From: an uncultured bacterium
GTDB taxonomy: Bacteria; Patescibacteriota; Gracilibacteria; UBA1369; PNNO01
Reading direction: 5' to 3'
Assembly (NCBI GenBank): GCA_963704705.1
Contig: OY969931.1
Location: 360,001-392,000, forward strand
Length of the DNA stretch: 32,000 nt
The translations under genes and the position numbers were made by a program. Position 1 is the first letter of the stretch, and each line of letters begins with the position of its first letter. The notes under the pieces are model-generated. The model worked only from the letters and a program-made list of their open reading frames with translations. It had not been told where the DNA came from and did no database searches. This document shows positions 2,917 to 31,279 of the stretch, piece after piece.

Positions 2917-3786
2917 ATGAAATTAAAAGGAATTGAAAAATTCAGGGAGAAAACCCAAATTTTTGGGGGTTGGAAAATATGGCTTATACCGTTGGTTGTT
3001 TTGTTATTGATGGCTACATATATCAAATTAATGACATTGGTATATTCACTGCCTGATTTATTTTTATCCAAAGGCATAAATTCAGAATGGCTCGCAATAA
3101 TACCTTTAGCTGGAGAAGTAGTTTTTTGTACATTTGGATTAATCCTGATTTATCAGATGTGGGCACAAAAGGACAGACTTAAAAAGAAATATGGCCAGCT
3201 TTCTTATAAATATATCTTTTTTGTTGGATTTACAGGCGTTACGGCAATGATATCAGTAGGATTGGGTTTGTTCGTTCATTACTGGATTTTTTCGCCATCA
3301 TTCTGGGCGGATTCCTCATTTAAATTTCTTGCAATTCCTTTGGACCAATATTTTATCACCTTTGCTCCGGTAATTTTTTGGGCAAAAATGATTATTTCAG
3401 TTTTGATTACTGCAACTGGCATTGCGCTTATTTTAAGGGCTCTTTTTACATTCGGATTCGACTATATGACTGTTGTTTATCTTTATTTTCCCGAAGAAAG
3501 CAAAATTCAGAATCATGAAATTTATTCTGTGCTAAGGCATCCAACTTATGCAGGGTTGTTGTTGGTTGCTTTGGGCGGAATGTATTCTACACTTACTTTG
3601 TATTCTGTTATTTTATATATTGTCTTTTTCTGTGCATTATTTATTCATATTCATTATGTTGAGGAAAAAGAGCTTATTCAAAGATTCGGACAATCTTATA
3701 AAGAATATATGAAAAATGTCCCGGCTGTTATTGTACGGCCAGCTAAAATTAGAACTTTTTTTAAATTTTTATTTTATGGAAATTGA
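2917..3786 (+). CDS. Isoprenylcysteine carboxyl methyltransferase / phospholipid methyltransferase (ICMT/PEMT) family membrane protein
   Basis: 289 aa and polytopic. The C-terminal signature is YSVLRHPTYAGLLLVALG ... HYVEEKELIQRFGQSYKEYMKNVP (RHPxY ... EExxL ... FGxxYxxY). Confidence 0.65.
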   Translation: MKLKGIEKFREKTQIFGGWKIWLIPLVVLLLMATYIKLMTLVYSLPDLFLSKGINSEWLAIIPLAGEVVFCTFGLILIYQMWAQKDRLKKKYGQLSYKYIFFVGFTGVTAMISVGLGLFVHYWIFSPSFWADSSFKFLAIPLDQYFITFAPVIFWAKMIISVLITATGIALILRALFTFGFDYMTVVYLYFPEESKIQNHEIYSVLRHPTYAGLLLVALGGMYSTLTLYSVILYIVFFCALFIHIHYVEEKELIQRFGQSYKEYMKNVPAVIVRPAKIRTFFKFLFYGN

Positions 3787-4174
3787 TATTAATAAATTTG
3801 ATGAACTTGTAGATCAGGTCTGGAATGAACTTCCTCAGGATTTTAAGGAACAAATCAATAATACTGATATTGTTATTTTAGATGAGCCAACTAAAGAACA
3901 GCTTAGAAGAATGAAAATTAAAGGGCTTCTGCTTGGGCTTTTTGAAGGCGTTCCAAAAACCGCCTGGGGCCAGATTTATTCATCAATTTTGCCTGCCAAA
4001 ATTACTATTTTCCGTAAGCCGATTTTGCTTGTATGTAAAGATTTAAAAGATCTCAAAATAACAATACATGTTGTTGTAATGCATGAGATCGCTCATTACT
4101 TTGGCTACAATGATAATGACATGTTCATTATGGACAAAAAGATGAAGGCGAGACTTTCAAAAGAAATTGAATAA
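3776..4174 (+). CDS. Zincin-like metallopeptidase family protein (DUF1025/Zincin_1-like, HExxH)
   Basis: VVMHEIAHYFGYNDNDM contains HExxH in the context typical of this small cytosolic family. I prefer the ATG at 3776 (MEIDINKFDEL...) over the track start at 3716, which would overlap the preceding gene by 71 nt. Confidence 0.6.
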   Translation: MEIDINKFDELVDQVWNELPQDFKEQINNTDIVILDEPTKEQLRRMKIKGLLLGLFEGVPKTAWGQIYSSILPAKITIFRKPILLVCKDLKDLKITIHVVVMHEIAHYFGYNDNDMFIMDKKMKARLSKEIE

Positions 4175-8375: not shown

Positions 8376-10373
8376 TTAATAAGCAGCGTTAATTTTTGTT
8401 TGTATTTTGGGCATTATCTCTATAGGAAATTTAAATTCAACAGGTGTCGAAGTATAGTTTTGATTTTTAATAAATGTTTCAAGTTCTTCGCGTTTATCTG
8501 CGGATAGTGCTGATTCAACATTTTCTTTTCTCCAAAGTCCCAAAGACATAGGGTGTTCTCCAAGAGCAGCTGAAAGACAGTGCATAAGGTAATAAGCAAG
8601 CACACTCGGATTCCAATGTTTCTTAATACGATGCAATTTATAAAAGTTTCTTAAAATATCTAAAAATTCCTTAACCTGCTGCTCGCTTGTAAGCCCGTTT
8701 TCAAATTCAACATTAGGATGCGAACTGTCAGCATTATTAAAATTCAAATCAACAATTTTCATACCTGCTTTTTTCCTGTTTTTAGCTGCTTGAGGCGAAT
8801 TAACATAATCTTCATAATCAAATGAACCCGGCAACAGGGTGTAAATAAATGGGGTAACAATGTCTGCTCCGAGCTGTTTTGCATCTTCCGCAATCTGTTT
8901 GCCGCAACCGGGTTTGTCTCCTTCAAGCCCTACAATACAAGTGTAATTTACTGCAACGCCTCTTTTTTGCCACTCACCAATTACCATTTTTGTGTAGTCG
9001 AATACATCTTGCTTTGTTACTTCTTCAAAGGGTTTATTAAAATGTCTGGCAATATGAACAATGTTTTGTTTTTTATCCATTTCCTTTAAAACTTCCGGAT
9101 CAAAGCTTTCCTGACCAAAGAAAATCATAAAAACACCGGCATTTTTGCACAAATCCATGAATTCGGTGTCAATTTCATCATTTTTAACAACTTTTAAGTC
9201 AGATTGGAACATTATATTAATTTCCGCACCTGTTTCTTGTCTTACCCTAGCCATCATCACGAGAATTTCTCTGCAATTTTTATTTCTTAAAAAATTATTA
9301 TCAGTTATAAAAATAGTTTTAATACCTTCTTCAATTGCAGCCCTGTAAACAACTTCGGTTTCTTCAACGGTTTTATATCTCATCTTTCTGCCTTCAATGG
9401 TAACTGACGAACAAAATCTGCATTTATGCGGACAGCCTCTTGAAGCCTGGAAAGTTGCCATTGCAGATGCGTAGCCTTCAATTCTGGTTGGCTTTGGTAA
9501 GGGAATATCTGAAATATTTTCAACCAATGGATATTTGTATTTAGGCTTCAATTTACCATGCAATACATCAGCAAGAATATTTGCGAATCTGCCTTGTTCA
9601 ATCTCACCCTGTACAGGAATTACCCCAATCTCGATCAATTTAGCAACCGAGGCTTCATGGGTTATTATATGGGGCCCGCCCATTAAAATTTCGATATTTA
9701 AGTTGAGTCTAAGTGCAATTGCTTTTAATTGAAGAGCTATATCGTAAGCTCGCATAAATTGATTTGTTTGTATGCTTGTTAAACAAACAGTAATTTTGCG
9801 ATCCGGATTTTTTAAAGCGTGTTGAACAATTTCTTGTACCTGAATACCGTCTCCTGCTTTATCGTCATATTCGGCAACCTTAACAGGTACTCCATCGATT
9901 TGGCTTGGTGTTGCTGCTTCAATAATAGAATTTGCTCCCTGAGGCATGAAGGCAGCTGCAAATCTTTTAACTTTCTCCGAATTTCTATAGCGGGAAGGAC
10001 TACATAAAAGAATATCCAATTGTGTAGGAAGATTATCAGTATTTTCATTGGAATGTTCAGATGTGAATTCCTCTTTAAATGTTATTTTTCCATTTGGATT
10101 TGCAATTCTTTGCGGAGTTCTTAGTTTTGGCTCATTTTCAGGTATTATGCCAAATCTTTTCCCTATATCTGAAACCCTTTCCCTTACTGCTTCAGAAGCT
10201 TCAAACAATGGAATTAACATATCTCTGCAGTTAGCCAGTCTTCCGTTTCCAACTATAAAATCACCAAATTTTTGAATCAATGGGTTATTGAATCCAGCTT
10301 TAAGGCAAAATTTTAAAATTTCTCTTTGATCAGGTATTTCAGGAAGTCTTAATATGTTTTGAATGTGTTCCAT
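8376..10373 (-). CDS. B12-binding-domain radical SAM protein (class B / COG1032-like) with about 115-aa N-terminal extension
   Basis: 665 aa. The CxxxCxxC cluster is ASRGCPHKCRFCS. Upstream of it is a Rossmann-like B12-binding region (LDILLCSPS ... ILMGGPHIT). The TIM-barrel body is IFITDNNF ... FFGQES. The C-terminal tail is long. Confidence 0.8.
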   Translation of the reverse strand: MEHIQNILRLPEIPDQREILKFCLKAGFNNPLIQKFGDFIVGNGRLANCRDMLIPLFEASEAVRERVSDIGKRFGIIPENEPKLRTPQRIANPNGKITFKEEFTSEHSNENTDNLPTQLDILLCSPSRYRNSEKVKRFAAAFMPQGANSIIEAATPSQIDGVPVKVAEYDDKAGDGIQVQEIVQHALKNPDRKITVCLTSIQTNQFMRAYDIALQLKAIALRLNLNIEILMGGPHIITHEASVAKLIEIGVIPVQGEIEQGRFANILADVLHGKLKPKYKYPLVENISDIPLPKPTRIEGYASAMATFQASRGCPHKCRFCSSVTIEGRKMRYKTVEETEVVYRAAIEEGIKTIFITDNNFLRNKNCREILVMMARVRQETGAEINIMFQSDLKVVKNDEIDTEFMDLCKNAGVFMIFFGQESFDPEVLKEMDKKQNIVHIARHFNKPFEEVTKQDVFDYTKMVIGEWQKRGVAVNYTCIVGLEGDKPGCGKQIAEDAKQLGADIVTPFIYTLLPGSFDYEDYVNSPQAAKNRKKAGMKIVDLNFNNADSSHPNVEFENGLTSEQQVKEFLDILRNFYKLHRIKKHWNPSVLAYYLMHCLSAALGEHPMSLGLWRKENVESALSADKREELETFIKNQNYTSTPVEFKFPIEIMPKIQTKINAAY

Positions 10374-14122: not shown

Positions 14123-14875
14123 TTAATGTACAGGCAAAAACAATAATAGAAACATAATACCTGCTCCAATAAAAATACTTATCAATTGAAATATTGATAT
14201 AGAAATTTTAGTTTCTTTATGAAGTTCCGGTATTAAATCTGTATTTGCAATATATAAAAATCCGCCAATTGTAATAGGAATAATAACACCTGTTACATCG
14301 ATATTTGCTCCTATAATTAGAACCACTAATGCACCTGCAACAGCTGTTAATGCCGATAAGAAGTTAAACAACAAAGCTTTACTTGCTTTCATGCCGGAAT
14401 GTAAAAGTACGCCGAAATCCCCCATTTCCTGAGGGATTTCATGTAAAATCACCGCGATTGTGGTAGCAATCCCTACAGGAATACTTAGCATAAAGCTACC
14501 TGCAATCAATACACCATCAATAAAATTATGAATCGCATCCCCAACAAGATTCATAAATGCCAAAGGGTGTATGTGATTTTTGCAAGCTGTTAAATGGCAG
14601 TGACGCCAATGTATAATTTTTTCCAAAACAAAGAAAATAATTATTCCCAGTAAAATAAAAAAAGATGATTTCAAATTTAAAGCTCCTTCTTCCGCTAATT
14701 CCGGAATCATGTGTATAAATACATCTCCGAGCATTGCACCAGCTGCAAAACTCACCATTATTATTAGAATCTTTTTAATAATTTGCTGTTTAATTACCAT
14801 TACAATTGCACCGATCAGAGAAATCGAACTTACAATCATTACTGCGAATAACGAATAAATCCAAATATCAATCAT
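14123..14875 (-). CDS. zupT: ZIP-family divalent metal (zinc) transporter, ZupT/GufA-like
   Basis: 250 aa with 8 TM helices. Signature motifs are HNFIDGVLIAGSF and LHEIPQEMGDFGVLL. Confidence 0.9.
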   Translation of the reverse strand: MIDIWIYSLFAVMIVSSISLIGAIVMVIKQQIIKKILIIMVSFAAGAMLGDVFIHMIPELAEEGALNLKSSFFILLGIIIFFVLEKIIHWRHCHLTACKNHIHPLAFMNLVGDAIHNFIDGVLIAGSFMLSIPVGIATTIAVILHEIPQEMGDFGVLLHSGMKASKALLFNFLSALTAVAGALVVLIIGANIDVTGVIIPITIGGFLYIANTDLIPELHKETKISISIFQLISIFIGAGIMFLLLFLPVH

Positions 14876-14887
14876 TTTAATTTTTAG

Positions 14888-15259
14888 TTAAGAGCACTTT
14901 TTGCAAATGCCTGAAATAGTTAAATTATGAGAAATATGCGAAAAATTTTTTATATTTTCAAATATATGCTTGCATGGCAGACATTCTGAATATCCGCATT
15001 TTTTACAAATAATATGATGATGCTGTTTTTTATCCAAATAATAATATTCCTTATCGTTAAGCCTTTCTTCGAAGACTATTCCTATAGTTTTAAAGAGATT
15101 TAAAATTCTATAAACTGAAGCCAAATCAATTTTCTTTTTAAGTTTATTGTGTATTTGACTCGCATTTAAAGGCATATGATTTGTTTCAAGGAGTTCAAGA
15201 ACCATTAGTCTTGGCTTTGTTAACTTATAACCTTTATTTTGAATAATTTCTTCAAACAT
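14888..15259 (-). CDS. Fur-family metalloregulator (Zur-like by context)
   Basis: The N-terminus GYKLTKPRLMVLELLE...ASVYRILNLFKTIGIV is a Fur-type winged helix. CKKCGYSECLPC ... CKKCS supplies a structural Zn site from CxxC pairs. The gene sits 12 nt upstream of the ZIP gene. I prefer the start at 15259 (MFEEIIQNKGYKLT) because the longer track ORF (start 15307) would put a perfect 25-bp palindrome and a predicted -10 inside coding sequence. Confidence 0.8.
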   Translation of the reverse strand: MFEEIIQNKGYKLTKPRLMVLELLETNHMPLNASQIHNKLKKKIDLASVYRILNLFKTIGIVFEERLNDKEYYYLDKKQHHHIICKKCGYSECLPCKHIFENIKNFSHISHNLTISGICKKCS

Positions 15260-15273
15260 ATTTAGATGGTATT

Positions 15274-15298
15274 CTAATTGCAAACAATTTGCAATTAG
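15274..15298. promoter_or_regulatory. Perfect 11-3-11 palindrome, candidate Fur-family (Zur) operator
   Basis: CTAATTGCAAA-caa-TTTGCAATTAG is 25 bp with no mismatch. It lies 15 nt upstream of the preferred start codon and downstream of an extended -10 (minus strand cTGgTAATAT, 15310-15318). Confidence 0.55.
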
Positions 15299-15310
15299 AA
15301 ATTTCATTTA

Positions 15311-21957: not shown

Positions 21958-22332
21958 GTGCCTGTGTATGCTGGTGTGGTTGCGGGGTTTCCTTCACCGG
22001 CAGATGATTTTCTGGAAGAAAAATTGGATCTTAATGAAAAGCTTATTCGTCATCCTGCCGCAACTTTTTTTGTTCGCGTAGCAGGCAATTCAATGATAAA
22101 AGCAGGTATTCATTCAGGAGATATGTTGATTGTTGATCGCTCTCTTGAGCCAAAAACAGGCAGCGTGGTTGTTGCCGTAGTTAATGGTGAGTTTACTGTA
22201 AAACGAATCAGCAATCAGGGTGATAAGCTTTATCTGATGCCTGAGAATCCGCGTTTTCAGCCAATTCAAATAACTGATGATTCCAATTTTCAGGTTTGGG
22301 GAGTTGTCACTAATGTAATTCATACAGTATGA
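21958..22332 (+). CDS. umuD: UmuD-like S24 peptidase, the self-cleaving subunit of error-prone polymerase V
   Basis: 124 aa from GTG. It aligns by eye to E. coli UmuD: A|GFPSPADDF (cleavage site), GNSM (Ser nucleophile), GDMLIVD and GEFTVKR (Lys). It has no DNA-binding domain, so it is not LexA. Start uncertain (see findings). Confidence 0.85.
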   Translation: MPVYAGVVAGFPSPADDFLEEKLDLNEKLIRHPAATFFVRVAGNSMIKAGIHSGDMLIVDRSLEPKTGSVVVAVVNGEFTVKRISNQGDKLYLMPENPRFQPIQITDDSNFQVWGVVTNVIHTV

Positions 22333-23594
22333 CTTTTGCGCTTGTGGACTGTAATAATTTTTATGCTTCTTGTGAGCGGGTTTTTAATCCAAAACTCGAG
22401 GGCAAACCCGTGGTCGTGCTTTCAAATAATGATGGTGTGATTATTGCGCGTTCAAATGAGGCAAAGGCACTTGGAATTAAAATGGCCACACCGATTTTTA
22501 AAGTTCAGGATATTATCGACCGCTACCATGTAAATGTTTTTTCATCGAATTATGTTTTGTATGGTGATATGTCACATCGTGTGATTTCGATTTTGCGCGA
22601 CAGCGCGTCTGAGGTTGAAGTTTATTCAGTTGATGAAGCGTTTTTAAAACTTGATGGTCTTCAGGAAGATCTATCAAAATTTGGCAGTGCAATACGCGAT
22701 AAAGTTAAGAAGTGGACAGGTATTCCGATTTCAGTTGGTATAGCGGAGACAAAAACCCTAGCAAAAGTAGCCAACGAGTTAGCCAAAAAAAATCCTCAAT
22801 ATCAAGGAGTTCTTGATTTTTCAGACCTTCGCGAAGATATGATAGACAAATATTTGGTGCAACTCGACATAAGTGATGTCTGGGGAATTGGCCGCAAGCT
22901 TTCTCCTATGCTGCGAATTCATGGAATAAAGACAGCTCGGGATCTTAAGTATGCTTCTGACCAGTGGATTAGAAAATGCATTAATGTTCTGGGCTTAAAA
23001 ACAGTTCATGAGCTTCGCGGCATACCATGCATTCAGCTGGAAGAAAATCCAGCTCCAAAAAAATCAATTGCAAGTACCCGTTCTTTTGGCAGGCCGGTTT
23101 TAAGTTTAACTGAACTCAAACAGGCGGTTGCCCTTTACTGCACAATAGCTTCGGAAAAGTTAAGAGAGGCTAGGCAGGTTGCATCCGCAATTCAGGTTTT
23201 TATCCATACAAATTTTCACAGACAAGATCAAGCTCAATATTCAAATTCAGCTGCAACAATGTTTCCTCGGCCAACTTCTCATACTCCAACAATGATTAAA
23301 TCTGCACATAAATTGCTGGAGCAACTTTACAAACCCGGCTATAAATACAAAAAAGCAGGAATTATTCTTACTAAACTTATGCCAAAAGATCAAATCCAGC
23401 TGGATCTTTTTAATGAACACAAATCAAATCCACGCAACGATCGCATTATGCAGACTCTCGATAAAGTAAACGCAAAATACGGCCGCAACACGCTCAGCCT
23501 TGCCGCACTAGGAATAACAAAACCATGGAAAATGAGGCAGCTTAGAAAATCCAAAAGGTTCACAACAAGCTGGCAGGAAGTGATTACGATATAA
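22329..23594 (+). CDS. umuC: UmuC, Y-family translesion DNA polymerase subunit
   Basis: 421 aa. MTFALVDCNNFYASCERVFNPKLEGKPVVVLSNNDGVIIARSNEAKALGIKM closely parallels the E. coli UmuC N-terminus. The catalytic SVDEAFL is present. The start overlaps the umuD stop (ATGA). Confidence 0.9.
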   Translation: MTFALVDCNNFYASCERVFNPKLEGKPVVVLSNNDGVIIARSNEAKALGIKMATPIFKVQDIIDRYHVNVFSSNYVLYGDMSHRVISILRDSASEVEVYSVDEAFLKLDGLQEDLSKFGSAIRDKVKKWTGIPISVGIAETKTLAKVANELAKKNPQYQGVLDFSDLREDMIDKYLVQLDISDVWGIGRKLSPMLRIHGIKTARDLKYASDQWIRKCINVLGLKTVHELRGIPCIQLEENPAPKKSIASTRSFGRPVLSLTELKQAVALYCTIASEKLREARQVASAIQVFIHTNFHRQDQAQYSNSAATMFPRPTSHTPTMIKSAHKLLEQLYKPGYKYKKAGIILTKLMPKDQIQLDLFNEHKSNPRNDRIMQTLDKVNAKYGRNTLSLAALGITKPWKMRQLRKSKRFTTSWQEVITI

Positions 23595-23639
23595 AAAAAG
23601 GCAGTTTTAAGCCGTGCCCGGGGCAACAAAGTGAATCGA

Positions 23640-23702
23640 TTAGCAGCATCCGCCTTTACAACATCCGCCACCTTTGCAACATCCTCCTTTAGAAATTAAC
23701 AT
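23640..23702 (-). CDS. Unannotated micro-ORF encoding a 20-aa Cys/Gly/Lys peptide, MLISKGGCCKGGGCCKGGCC
   Basis: The minus strand reads ATG TTA ATT TCT AAA GGA GGA TGT TGC AAA GGT GGC GGA TGT TGT AAA GGC GGA TGC TGC TAA. The three KGG(G)CC units differ from one another only at third codon positions, plus one extra Gly codon. The ORF has its own predicted promoter, and a T7 run follows 30 nt after the stop. Confidence 0.4.
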   Translation of the reverse strand: MLISKGGCCKGGGCCKGGCC

Positions 23703-23736
23703 ATTTAAGTTGGTTAATAATATATTTGTGTATGAC

Positions 23737-23765
23737 AATATATCAAAATCCCATTAAATTTGCAA
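23737..23765 (-). promoter_or_regulatory. Candidate promoter for the Cys-rich micro-ORF
   Basis: The minus strand reads TTGCAA-(17 nt)-TATATT. The -10 ends 34 nt upstream of the ATG, and the -35 lies 6 nt after the DUF3307 stop codon. Confidence 0.4.
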
Positions 23766-23771
23766 TTGACT

Positions 23772-24296
23772 CTAAATTAAAACTACAGCGGACATGAAAA
23801 TTAAAAACCCTATGGTAAAAGCGAGTAATTTGGCATTAATCAGTTTTTTTGATTCTCTTTTTTGAATATATAAAATATCAATTACAAAAAGAATATAAAT
23901 TGCAGATAAAACACCGAGCCATATAAAATTATTTAAATAGAGTGAACCTGCAGCAAAAGTAACATTAAGTTGCGAAAGTATCAGACCTCCAATAATTAAA
24001 CTGATTAAATGAACCATTTGATCCAATAAAAACGGCAAAACATACGCTTTGCTTTTTTTGGTTAAATTGATTTTAGAAATATCCGTAATAAAGTGCACAA
24101 GACTAACGCCACCAATTACAGCCCAAGTTTGCCAAAAATCCAAATATGGAACTAAAATAATGATTGAGATAAGTGCAAAAATCATTACATGTACCAAAGT
24201 TCCAAAAGGTGATGCGTATTTCATTTTTAGCAGTCTGTTTGGCTGGAAAGTGAAATCCGCAAGGAAGTGTGCAACAATTAAATAAGTTATCGGCAT
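23772..24296 (-). CDS. DUF3307-like polytopic membrane protein
   Basis: 174 aa. The N-terminal LIVAHFLADFTFQP (HxxxDFxxQ), a second HFITD motif and a later DQMVH are consistent with DUF3307 as I recall it. It lies 11 nt downstream of the preceding gene. Confidence 0.55.
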   Translation of the reverse strand: MPITYLIVAHFLADFTFQPNRLLKMKYASPFGTLVHVMIFALISIIILVPYLDFWQTWAVIGGVSLVHFITDISKINLTKKSKAYVLPFLLDQMVHLISLIIGGLILSQLNVTFAAGSLYLNNFIWLGVLSAIYILFVIDILYIQKRESKKLINAKLLAFTIGFLIFMSAVVLI

Positions 24297-24307
24297 GAGC
24301 GTATTGG

Positions 24308-24760
24308 CTATTCATTAAAATCTTCATTGCGCATATTTTCTTTAATGCGACTTATGAACTCACTGCTTATTTGTTCGGCTAGATGTGGGTTTTCGTTAAT
24401 AAGTGTATAGAAATCGTCTTTTTTTAGTATGAAAATTTCAGATTCGGTTAATGTTTTTGCGCTGGCTATTCTTTCTGCCTCGTTTACCAAAGCCATTTCT
24501 CCAAAAAATGAGCCATCTGAAAGAGTGGCAAGTACTATTTGATCATATGGTTTGTCATCGTCACCCTGATAAATTCTAACCTGGCCTTTTTTGATAATGT
24601 ACATTGCCTCACCCTGTTCACCCTGTTTAAAAATTTGTCTGTTTGCAGGATAATACTCAAGTGTGATTTTTTGGCTTAGAAGTTCAATTGATTGAGGTGT
24701 GAGATCCCTAAATAAGGGGACCTGATTTATAATTGAAACAATTGGATTTATATCATTCAT
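24308..24760 (-). CDS. Stand-alone cyclic nucleotide-binding (CNB) domain protein
   Basis: 150 aa. Motifs are FKQGEQGEAMYIIKKGQVRIY and FFGEMALVNEAERIASAKT (a phosphate-binding-cassette-like FGE.AL ... R.A). There is no HTH or other output domain. Confidence 0.8.
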   Translation of the reverse strand: MNDINPIVSIINQVPLFRDLTPQSIELLSQKITLEYYPANRQIFKQGEQGEAMYIIKKGQVRIYQGDDDKPYDQIVLATLSDGSFFGEMALVNEAERIASAKTLTESEIFILKKDDFYTLINENPHLAEQISSEFISRIKENMRNEDFNE

Positions 24761-24771
24761 TATAAGTCGCG

Positions 24772-25131
24772 TTAAAGATAAAGAAATTCTTTGAAGTCGT
24801 TAATATTGAATAAATAGATTTCACTGTTTTCAGTGCATCTTGCGATTGTTTCACGAGGTATATCTTCTATAAGAGCCATTTCTCCAAAAAAATTATCAGG
24901 ATAATGCTTTTCAGTCTGAATTAACTGACCATTTTGATCTTTTTTAAGCATTTCAACCATTCCTGATTTTATCACATAAAAGTGCGTACTTTCATCCCCA
25001 ATTTGATATATTGAGCAATTTTTAGGATAACCCATAAGTACTGCCGTTTTTGTAGCGTCTTTAAGGTCATCTTCATCGATTTCGCTTAGGGCAGGAATAT
25101 TTTTTAGGATTTTAAACAAAGGAGAATCCAT
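24772..25131 (-). CDS. Stand-alone cyclic nucleotide-binding (CNB) domain protein
   Basis: 119 aa. Motifs are YQIGDESTHFYVIKSGMVEM and FFGEMALIEDIPRETIARC. It is a single domain only. Confidence 0.75.
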   Translation of the reverse strand: MDSPLFKILKNIPALSEIDEDDLKDATKTAVLMGYPKNCSIYQIGDESTHFYVIKSGMVEMLKKDQNGQLIQTEKHYPDNFFGEMALIEDIPRETIARCTENSEIYLFNINDFKEFLYL

Positions 25132-30922: not shown

Positions 30923-30955
30923 AACGTACTGATTTATCCTTTAACATAACTTTTT

Positions 30956-31279
30956 ATGGCTGAAGTTACTTTTACAGATGATAACTTTGAAGCAGAAGTA
31001 AAGAATGCTCAGGGTGTTGTTTTGGTTGATTTCTTTGCTACATGGTGCGGTCCTTGTAAAATGATGGCCCCTGTAATCGATGAACTTTCCGGAGAATTCG
31101 AAGGAAAAGCTAAAATCGGAAAACTTGATGTTGATGAAAACAATAAATCTGCTTCTGAATTCGGAGTACAAAGTATTCCAACTTTAATTCTGTTTAAAGA
31201 CGGAAAGGAAGTAGACAGAATGATCGGATTCCAATCAAAAGAAGTACTAAAAGAAAAGCTTGAAGGAGCTGTCGGCTAA
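30956..31279 (+). CDS. trxA: Thioredoxin
   Basis: 107 aa. It has the FFATWCGPCKMMAP active site (WCGPC) and the typical SIPTLILFKDG. Confidence 0.95.
   Translation: MAEVTFTDDNFEAEVKNAQGVVLVDFFATWCGPCKMMAPVIDELSGEFEGKAKIGKLDVDENNKSASEFGVQSIPTLILFKDGKEVDRMIGFQSKEVLKEKLEGAVG

Follow-up and report, generated by a model that had tools for sequence, protein, structure and literature searches.

The locus and its transcription signals

The window, by which we mean the whole 32,000-nucleotide stretch of DNA that was analyzed, belongs to a host with a GC content of about 33%, a low-GC member of the Patescibacteria that is Peregrinibacteria/Peribacteria-like. Between the gene for a DUF3307 membrane protein and a convergent umuC lies a micro-ORF of 20 codons. 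With a promoter, a leader that has no Shine-Dalgarno sequence, the ORF itself and an intrinsic terminator, it makes up a mini-cistron of about 140 nt that is complete in itself. The features of this region are listed below; the lineages mentioned are those of the related loci described in the next section.

23772-24296, minus strand: gene for the DUF3307 membrane protein (Pfam PF11750, E = 1.4e-19), the constant upstream neighbor of the micro-ORF
23765-23760, minus strand: -35 hexamer TTGCAA, from a promoter scan; TTGAAA in two lineages
23745-23737, minus strand: extended -10 element TG-A-TATATT (TG at 23745-23744, TATATT at 23742-23737), with a 17-nt spacer to the -35 hexamer
23730-23703, minus strand: putative 5' untranslated region of about 28 nt without a Shine-Dalgarno sequence, counted from an inferred transcription start
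23717-23713, minus strand: TTAAC(C) motif at -15 from the ATG; TTAACC is invariant in the aligned lineages
23702-23640, minus strand: micro-ORF, from ATG (23702-23700) to TAA (23642-23640), 20 codons plus stop, product MLISKGGCCKGGGCCKGGCC
23619-23593, minus strand: intrinsic terminator, stem GGGCAC/CTGCCT (23619-23614 with 23604-23599), T7 run at 23599-23593
22329-23594, plus strand: umuC, convergent with the micro-ORF, stop codon at 23592-23594

After its first four codons (ATG TTA ATT TCT) the micro-ORF consists of three Lys-Gly(2-3)-Cys-Cys units, encoded by AAA GGA GGA TGT TGC, AAA GGT GGC GGA TGT TGT and AAA GGC GGA TGC TGC, and ends in TAA. Our re-reading of the sequence agrees with the first-pass annotation, which had described the units as differing at wobble positions and by one additional Gly codon. 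Among the ATG ORFs of 8-60 aa in the window, the micro-ORF alone has at least two CC pairs, and it also has the highest Cys fraction. Block shuffling gave some ORF of at most 30 aa with at least 6 Cys in 6 of 200 trials. The strongest argument against a chance origin is comparative, namely the conservation of the ORF in nine lineages.

The promoter TTGCAA-17-TATATT that had been proposed for this gene was recovered by the scan, is conserved, and has in addition the TG of an extended -10 element. In the seven aligned lineages, AATTG[C/A]AA is invariant, and both the TG and the TATATT are conserved while the base between them varies (A/T/A/G/C/C/C). In L011 and L012 a perfect TGATATAAT lies equally far upstream and overlaps the stop codon of DUF3307. 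The run of seven T residues noted after the stop codon is likewise present; it is preceded by a hairpin, and the terminator as a whole is conserved. Its 9-nt loop, GGCUUAAAA, is conserved, and across lineages 88% of the cells in the stem alignment are paired, with two compensatory pairs (G-C to A-U in L001, A-U to G-C in L013), a result reached by 15 of 500 shuffles. The T7 run shares bases with the stop codon of umuC on the opposite strand. A conserved TGnTATAAT-like element at a fixed distance, together with a GC hairpin followed by a T-run, suggests that the micro-ORF is an independent transcription unit. The promoter looks constitutive, and neither a metal-sensing regulator gene nor a recognizable operator was found attached to it.

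The leader region is predicted to be unstructured. Motifs resembling a Shine-Dalgarno sequence are absent upstream of 30 of the 32 window genes, and the remaining two have only a weak AAGG. TTAAC occurs within 30 nt upstream of 8 of the 32 genes, where 1.3 would be expected, and seven of these motifs start at -12 to -16. With TTAACC at -15 and no Shine-Dalgarno sequence, the initiation region of the micro-ORF therefore resembles that of ordinary genes of this host.

A longer, 32-aa form starting at an upstream in-frame TTG had also been suggested. Such a TTG exists in the window (23738-23736), but it overlaps the -10 hexamer, and the extended frame is broken elsewhere: in L006-8 a 1-nt indel brings a TAA into it, and in L011 and L012 a stop stands two codons ahead of the ATG. 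We discard this form. The seeming conservation of a "TNLNM" extension is that of a conserved DNA leader.

A Fur-family half-site had been noted in the promoter as well. The shared 10-mer, AATTGCAAAT, does exist, both at 23758-23767 on the minus strand and within the palindrome at 15274-15298 (CTAATTGCAAA-caa-TTTGCAATTAG). The true start codon of the Fur-family gene is probably downstream of the palindrome, given an internal ATG at 15259 and a Pfam match that does not begin before residue 25. The link of the micro-ORF to Fur, however, is weak and not supported statistically. Only one arm is present at its promoter, the second arm matching by eye at 5 of 9 positions, and the window shows no significant enrichment of the 10-mer (5 copies found against 2.0 expected, a number reached in 9 of 100 shuffles). 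The conserved bases at the half-site are accounted for by the -35 element.

Conservation and genomic context

A search with the micro-peptide joined to itself, an artificial doubled query, matched one protein, P0001, a 38-aa call ending in ...LNMLISKGGCCKGGGCSKGGGCC. It lies on a 1.2 kb JGI contig on which a cyclic-nucleotide-binding protein, DUF3307 and the micro-ORF follow one another in the same order as in the window. A concatenation of all variants gave no match in the protein homology search. As an unbiased route, we used the DUF3307 protein as the query and inspected the contigs of its homologues for the micro-ORF. This yielded eight homologues with identities of 100, 84, 72, 65, 59, 59, 53 and 50%. 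The set was completed by a Candidatus Peribacteria MAG found among the reference genomes; the scans of genome and metagenome contigs by DUF3307 alignment that yielded it gave only L013, L014 (the record of L011 again) and L015 (again the contig of L001). The nine lineages are all members of one clade, defined by DUF3307 orthology.

An intact Cys/Gly/Lys-rich micro-ORF directly follows DUF3307 in every one of the nine lineages, over a range of DUF3307 identity from 100 to 50%, and each locus has one such ORF, never more. Neither a disrupted or missing frame in relatives nor a repeat scattered as a non-coding element, two of the observations that the first-pass annotation had named as speaking against its gene, was encountered. 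The peptides are as follows.

Window and L002-5: MLISKGGCCKGGGCCKGGCC
L001: MLISKGGCCKGGGCSKGGGCC
L006-8: MLISKGGGGCCGGDCCKGGGGCC
L009: MCDGDKKGGGCCKDGDKKGGGCC
L010: MFDGGKKGGGCC
L013: MLDGDKKGGGCC
L011: MFKGGGCCKGGGCCGGDCDCDLKGGC
L012: MFKGGGCCKGGGCCGDNCGCELKGGGGC

The ORFs range from 12 to 28 codons. Their C-terminal residue is Cys in all nine lineages, and in seven of the nine the peptide ends in CC on a Gly linker. At one extreme, the 12-aa forms of two lineages have 2 Cys and exactly one CC pair; at the other, the peptides of L011 and L012 have 7 Cys in 26-28 aa, with both CC and CXC motifs.

The gene downstream of the micro-ORF is umuC in the window, in L002-5 and in L012. In L010 umuC follows after an additional 57-aa call, and in L006-8 the downstream gene is an inositol monophosphatase. 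Since the downstream gene differs between lineages while DUF3307 stays upstream, the micro-ORF travels with DUF3307. DUF3307 is a possible functional partner of the micro-peptide. Its sequence has three invariant motifs (H10xxxD14, H68xxxD72 and D92xxxH96), and these His/Asp pairs fall in predicted helices. An AF2 model of the protein reached a pLDDT of 65, and Foldseek gave no fold match against the PDB; our literature search on DUF3307 returned a single, unrelated mention.

DUF3307 is itself preceded by two cyclic-nucleotide-binding proteins that stand alone, by a membrane protein of 313 aa and by corA in divergent orientation, and CorA shares conserved synteny with the micro-ORF. The metal-handling genes to which the earlier annotation had drawn attention are indeed present in the window: an HMA P-type ATPase, Fur with ZIP, ArsR with ArsP, and CorA. 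The window also contains a thioredoxin gene at 30956-31279, a radical-SAM gene at 8376-10373, beyond the conserved synteny, and a gene for a PEMT/ICMT-like methyltransferase about 20 kb from the micro-ORF.

Searches for kin outside these loci returned little. Seven peptide variants matched 0 Pfam families at E <= 10, no variant matched NCBIfam, and the PDB sequences gave only insignificant defensin-like matches. An exact look-up of seven peptide forms and of the 29-aa L007 call in a collection of 15 billion proteins found none of them. An exhaustive HMMER search of 1.84e9 representatives, with the extended ORF and P0001 as input, returned only P0001 and P0010. The latter owes its match to the non-coding extension; it is a spurious repeat protein and lacks CC. 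P0001 is the sole call of the micro-ORF family in the protein collections, and its start is wrong. A scan of viral contigs for KGGGCC followed by a stop codon gave 21 chance matches, most without a start codon and none with the repeat architecture. In the literature we found nothing on such Cys-rich micro-peptides in CPR bacteria. The family stands out by being extremely short and built of K-Gn-CC modules, by an invariant Cys at the C-terminus and by the lineage of its hosts.

Evidence for translation

Between the window and L002, 6 of the 63 bases of the ORF differ, and all six differences are at third positions and synonymous. Synonymous changes make up 22% of the possible single changes, and by Monte-Carlo simulation the probability of this outcome is about 1.5e-4; the comparison of relatives for synonymous substitutions that the first-pass annotation had recommended thus came out in favor of its gene. 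L001 differs by a further five synonymous changes, by the replacement of one Cys codon by Ser and by the insertion of one Gly codon. Shifts in the distance from ATG to stop (+3, +9, +9, -24, -24, +18 and +24 nt) amount to whole codons every time. Seven bases differ between L011 and L012, and here every Cys is retained while the intervening residues change. Among the three closest relatives, the DNA identity of the ORF (0.83-0.90) is no lower than that of the DUF3307 gene (0.72-0.83).

Codon usage gives the same picture. The Gly codons GGA, GGT and GGC are in near-equal use and Cys is encoded by both TGT and TGC, so that the amino acids are conserved and not the DNA words. The excess of synonymous changes, the in-frame indels and the retention of start and stop codons in nine orthologs point to purifying selection. 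The proposal of selection on the peptide, and not on the DNA repeat, is thereby sustained, by divergence that is synonymous only, by length changes in whole codons and by Cys residues that are kept in nine lineages. We conclude from these comparisons that the micro-ORF is very probably a translated gene. The suspicion of a genuine gene that annotation had passed over is supported: the gene is very likely real, conserved in nine lineages and almost never called.

A possible thiolate-based metal binder

Pooled over the variants, the peptides are composed of 38% Gly, 25% Cys and 14% Lys, together with Asp, Ser and Asn. His, Tyr and Trp are absent from the nine variants, and the sole aromatic residue is a Phe at position 2 in three of them. 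With 12-28 aa and 17-30% Cys, all nine variants have the low mass and high Cys content of metallothioneins. They also have no His and almost no aromatic residues, and they carry the typical Cys motifs: CC occurs in all of them and CXC in L011 and L012. The metallothionein-like composition described for the window peptide thus extends to the family.

The reading we favor is that the micro-peptide is a thiolate-based binder of soft metals or metalloids, similar to metallothioneins and phytochelatins. This reading is tentative, drawn from composition and analogy, and we give it somewhat less than even weight. The product would be a hydrophilic peptide in which a Lys-Gly(2-4)-Cys-Cys module occurs one to three times or more and the C-terminal residue is invariably Cys. 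Its vicinal thiol pairs would sit on flexible Gly linkers, and Lys would lower the thiol pKa and keep the peptide soluble. The thiol pairs would chelate thiophilic metal or metalloid ions such as Cu(I), Zn(II)/Cd(II) or As(III). In the longer forms, with 5-7 Cys, chelation could be intramolecular, like that of the fungal Cu-metallothioneins with 7 Cys, and in the 12-residue forms with two Cys it could take place between molecules, like that of phytochelatins. Such a peptide might act in the cytoplasm as a metal buffer, chaperone or detoxifier, and the metal would possibly be passed to or from the adjoining DUF3307 protein with its three invariant HxxxD/DxxxH motifs.

Several known systems offer partial precedents. 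Fungal family-I Cu-metallothioneins, from Neurospora crassa and Agaricus bisporus, are gene products of very small size that are rich in Cys and have small or charged residues as spacers. They have 7 Cys, as do the L011 and L012 variants, and bind about 6 Cu(I); in a CCC run the adjacent Cys all coordinate Cu(I), and nearby Lys can stabilize thiolates (PMC13107397). No sequence relationship between them and the micro-peptide is detectable, however, and the latter is bacterial (CPR), is built of a variable number of K-Gn-CC modules, goes down to 12 aa with 2 Cys and ends in Cys. Phytochelatins, (gamma-Glu-Cys)n-Gly, are enzymatic products made from glutathione, and the short ones bind metal between molecules. 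They too are modular thiol peptides with a varying number of units, comparable to the series of one, two and three modules found here. Unlike phytochelatins, the micro-peptide would be ribosomal, and it has vicinal CC pairs and Lys/Gly spacers.

The bacterial precedents are larger. Metallothioneins of the SmtA/BmtA type have about 55 aa, a zinc-finger-like fold and both His and Cys as ligands. Like the micro-peptide, bacterial metallothioneins (SmtA/BmtA, Pfam Metallothio_Pro; PmtA) are small and Cys-rich, and they serve in metal homeostasis (PMC10612145, PMC11237414). The micro-peptide differs from the SmtA/BmtA type in that it has no Pfam match, no His and half to a fifth of the length. ArsD from E. 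coli R773 has vicinal Cys pairs at its extreme C-terminus, Cys112-113 and Cys119-120, and these are implicated in metalloid sensing (PMC4562236). The analogy extends to the window in that it carries a pair of ArsR and ArsP, but neither an ArsD nor an ArsA gene was found there. Moreover, with about 120 aa ArsD is large enough to be folded and has its chaperone site at the N-terminus, whereas the micro-peptide corresponds to the tail-like sequence alone.

Several observations weigh against metal binding. No relationship to any curated metallothionein family was found in Pfam. A metal-thiolate cluster within a single molecule would need more than the 2 Cys that the 12-residue peptides of two lineages contain. 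Of the metal genes, CorA alone lies in the conserved synteny, and its annotation is that of a Mg2+ transporter and not of a carrier of thiophilic metals. Finally, no metal-responsive operator is evident at the promoter, the Fur half-site not being significant.

Alternative explanations

The same vicinal thiols could instead belong to a ribosomally made low-molecular-weight thiol or redox peptide, whose CC pairs would cycle between the dithiol and a strained eight-membered disulfide and which would buffer the redox state or shuttle electrons. We consider this unlikely. Some flavoprotein disulfide reductases have flexible C-terminal Cys-Cys or Cys-Sec tails, which are a parallel for such a role, and the pattern of conservation would suit it: the C-terminal Cys is kept in nine of nine lineages, the terminal CC in seven of nine, and the 12-aa forms keep one CC. 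The window also holds a thioredoxin gene (30956-31279). A host with little biosynthetic capacity would be in keeping with a redox peptide as well; compare the Peribacteria, which are without many cofactor and amino-acid pathways (PMC4736985). However, the micro-ORF has no linked gene for a reductase or oxidoreductase, the thioredoxin gene being 7 kb away and outside the conserved synteny, and both the varying number of modules and the CXC motifs of L011 and L012 suit metal clusters better.

It is also improbable that the micro-ORF encodes the precursor of a modified peptide (RiPP-like, a cofactor precursor, or a peptide with a lipidated or otherwise modified C-terminal Cys), with DUF3307 as the modifying enzyme, protease or exporter. 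The strict association with DUF3307 while the downstream gene varies would fit such a pairing, as would the invariant C-terminal Cys, and a membrane metallo-enzyme could have invariant His/Asp pairs in predicted helices such as those of DUF3307. Elsewhere in the window there are genes for a PEMT/ICMT-like methyltransferase and for a radical-SAM protein, but these are about 20 kb and 13 kb away, respectively, and both lie outside the conserved synteny. SCIFF and other Cys-rich RiPP precursors are likewise short, ribosomal and Cys-rich; they come with a leader peptide and with a maturase, radical-SAM or other, encoded next to them. The micro-peptide has no leader: 0-5 residues stand ahead of the first module or, by a second count, Met plus 1-6 residues ahead of the first Cys module, and the upstream extension is refuted. 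No recognized maturase (radical SAM, YcaO, LanM or other) is adjacent, the neighbors being DUF3307, two cNMP-binding proteins and umuDC, and no precursor family in NCBIfam or Pfam matches. The hypervariable length of the core is also unlike that of most cofactor precursors.

A third explanation draws on the adjacency to DUF3307, which is constant in nine lineages. The peptide might be a small subunit or regulator of that protein, with its Cys pairs as a contact or sensing site, in the manner of the enterobacterial small proteins that modulate transporters. A separate strong promoter would permit a stoichiometry or regulation different from that of DUF3307. Against this, the peptide is fully hydrophilic and has no transmembrane segment, unlike most transporter-modulating small proteins, and a fixed interface would not be expected to show a 2.3-fold variation in length and module number beside a well-conserved DUF3307. 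We regard a role of this kind as quite unlikely.

Very unlikely is a non-coding element in which the frame stays open by accident, be it a small RNA (such as a CsrB/RsmZ-like sponge that binds a protein through GGA motifs) or a conserved repeat of the DNA. In its favor, the flanks are well conserved too, the repeat can be read through in another frame as well (a 93-aa ORF), and each repeat in the window has a GGAUG, which resembles CsrA-type GGA motifs. Against it, the differences between the window and L002 are confined to wobble positions and the length changes between the conserved ATG and stop to whole codons; the number of GGA motifs is not conserved (the third unit of L002, for instance, reads GGT GGT TGC); the element has no Rfam match at E <= 10; its fold is weaker than that of shuffles (z = +1.8), with the terminator as the only robust element of the consensus fold; and the motif is not scattered, there being one copy per locus and nothing but chance matches in viral contigs.

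Implications

We can also conceive of the peptide as a gene-encoded stand-in for enzymatically made thiols of low molecular weight (glutathione or phytochelatin) in a biosynthetically minimal CPR cell, acting between molecules as a redox buffer and a buffer of thiophilic metals, with DUF3307 as a dedicated transporter of the metal or of the peptide-metal complex. In other words, it would be a modular K-Gn-CC thiol whose module copy number evolves rapidly. This combined role is speculative and on balance improbable; if it is true, the 12-residue form would rank among the shortest functional, independently transcribed gene products of bacteria.

The locus also exposes a blind spot in annotation, as a promoter, leader, ORF and terminator that are conserved in nine lineages have remained essentially uncalled by gene callers. 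The peptide is cheap to synthesize, which makes the central claim directly testable. Should the micro-peptides bind metal, they would be, at 12-28 aa, the shortest gene-encoded metallothionein-like family known, and to our knowledge no metallothionein-like peptide has been described before in the Candidate Phyla Radiation. The DUF3307 family would in that case gain a testable partner and a hypothesis, that of a metal site formed by its HxxxD motifs.

Variable flank downstream of the micro-ORF

A umuD-umuC pair (window 21958-23594) separates the micro-ORF, which encodes a Cys/Gly/Lys-rich peptide, from an inositol-monophosphatase gene in the window and in the related loci L002-5, L010 and L012. 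In the group L006-8 the pair is missing (region compared: L006 3531-3719) and the inositol-monophosphatase gene lies directly 3' of the micro-ORF. Because of this pattern of presence and absence, umuDC looks like a cassette that has been either inserted or deleted. Between 20 and 24 kb of the window, GC content is raised (0.38-0.40 versus about 0.33). At locus L010 (GCA_054920355.1) the interval separating the micro-ORF from umuC contains an additional 57-aa gene call, on the opposite strand (3837-4010), that the window lacks.

The T-run of the micro-ORF terminator, on the minus strand, shares bases with the umuC stop codon (23592-23599); umuC is convergent and lies on the plus strand. As no T-run follows the hairpin on the plus strand, the terminator looks unidirectional.

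Conserved neighbours upstream

Among orthologues of the DUF3307 membrane protein (window 23772-24296) the pairs H10xxxD14, H68xxxD72 and D92xxxH96 are invariant and located in predicted helices, and this i,i+4 arrangement of His and Asp is suggestive of a metal or catalytic site within the membrane. The AF2 model of the protein (pLDDT 65) matched no fold in the PDB. The cyclic-nucleotide-binding-domain pair carries no DNA-binding or effector domain, and its synteny with DUF3307 and the micro-ORF is kept in most lineages.

24308-25131, two tandem stand-alone cyclic-nucleotide-binding-domain proteins of 150 and 119 aa

Other genes of the window

14888-15307, minus strand, Fur-family ORF as called
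14123-14875, ZIP gene, its partner in a Fur/Zur and ZIP operon
2917-3786 and 3716-4174, PEMT/ICMT-like membrane methyltransferase and overlapping Zincin-like metallopeptidase gene
8376-10373, unusually large radical-SAM protein of 665 aa

The Pfam FUR match begins only at residue 25, and for this reason the true start of the Fur-family ORF is probably the internal ATG at 15259. A start at that position places a perfect 11-3-11 palindrome, CTAATTGCAAA-caa-TTTGCAATTAG (15274-15298), in the 5' region of the gene, and the palindrome is likely to be an auto-regulatory operator of the operon.

The methyltransferase scores above the Pfam cut-off for PEMT and below it for ICMT. ICMT-type enzymes in eukaryotes act on C-terminal modified cysteines. 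The methyltransferase gene lies 20 kb from the micro-ORF, whose peptide ends in Cys. Only the core domain of the radical-SAM protein is recognised by Pfam.

Possible translation-start signals

Shine-Dalgarno sequences appear to be missing from this genome; 30 of 32 window genes lack an SD-like motif upstream, and the remaining two have only a weak AAGG. The motif TTAAC occurs within 30 nt upstream of 8 of the 32 genes, against 1.3 expected, and in seven of those eight it starts 12-16 nt before the start codon. Examples lie in these upstream regions:

14876-14905
24761-24790
30926-30955

We propose that TTAAC could be a translation-initiation or promoter-proximal motif specific to this lineage.
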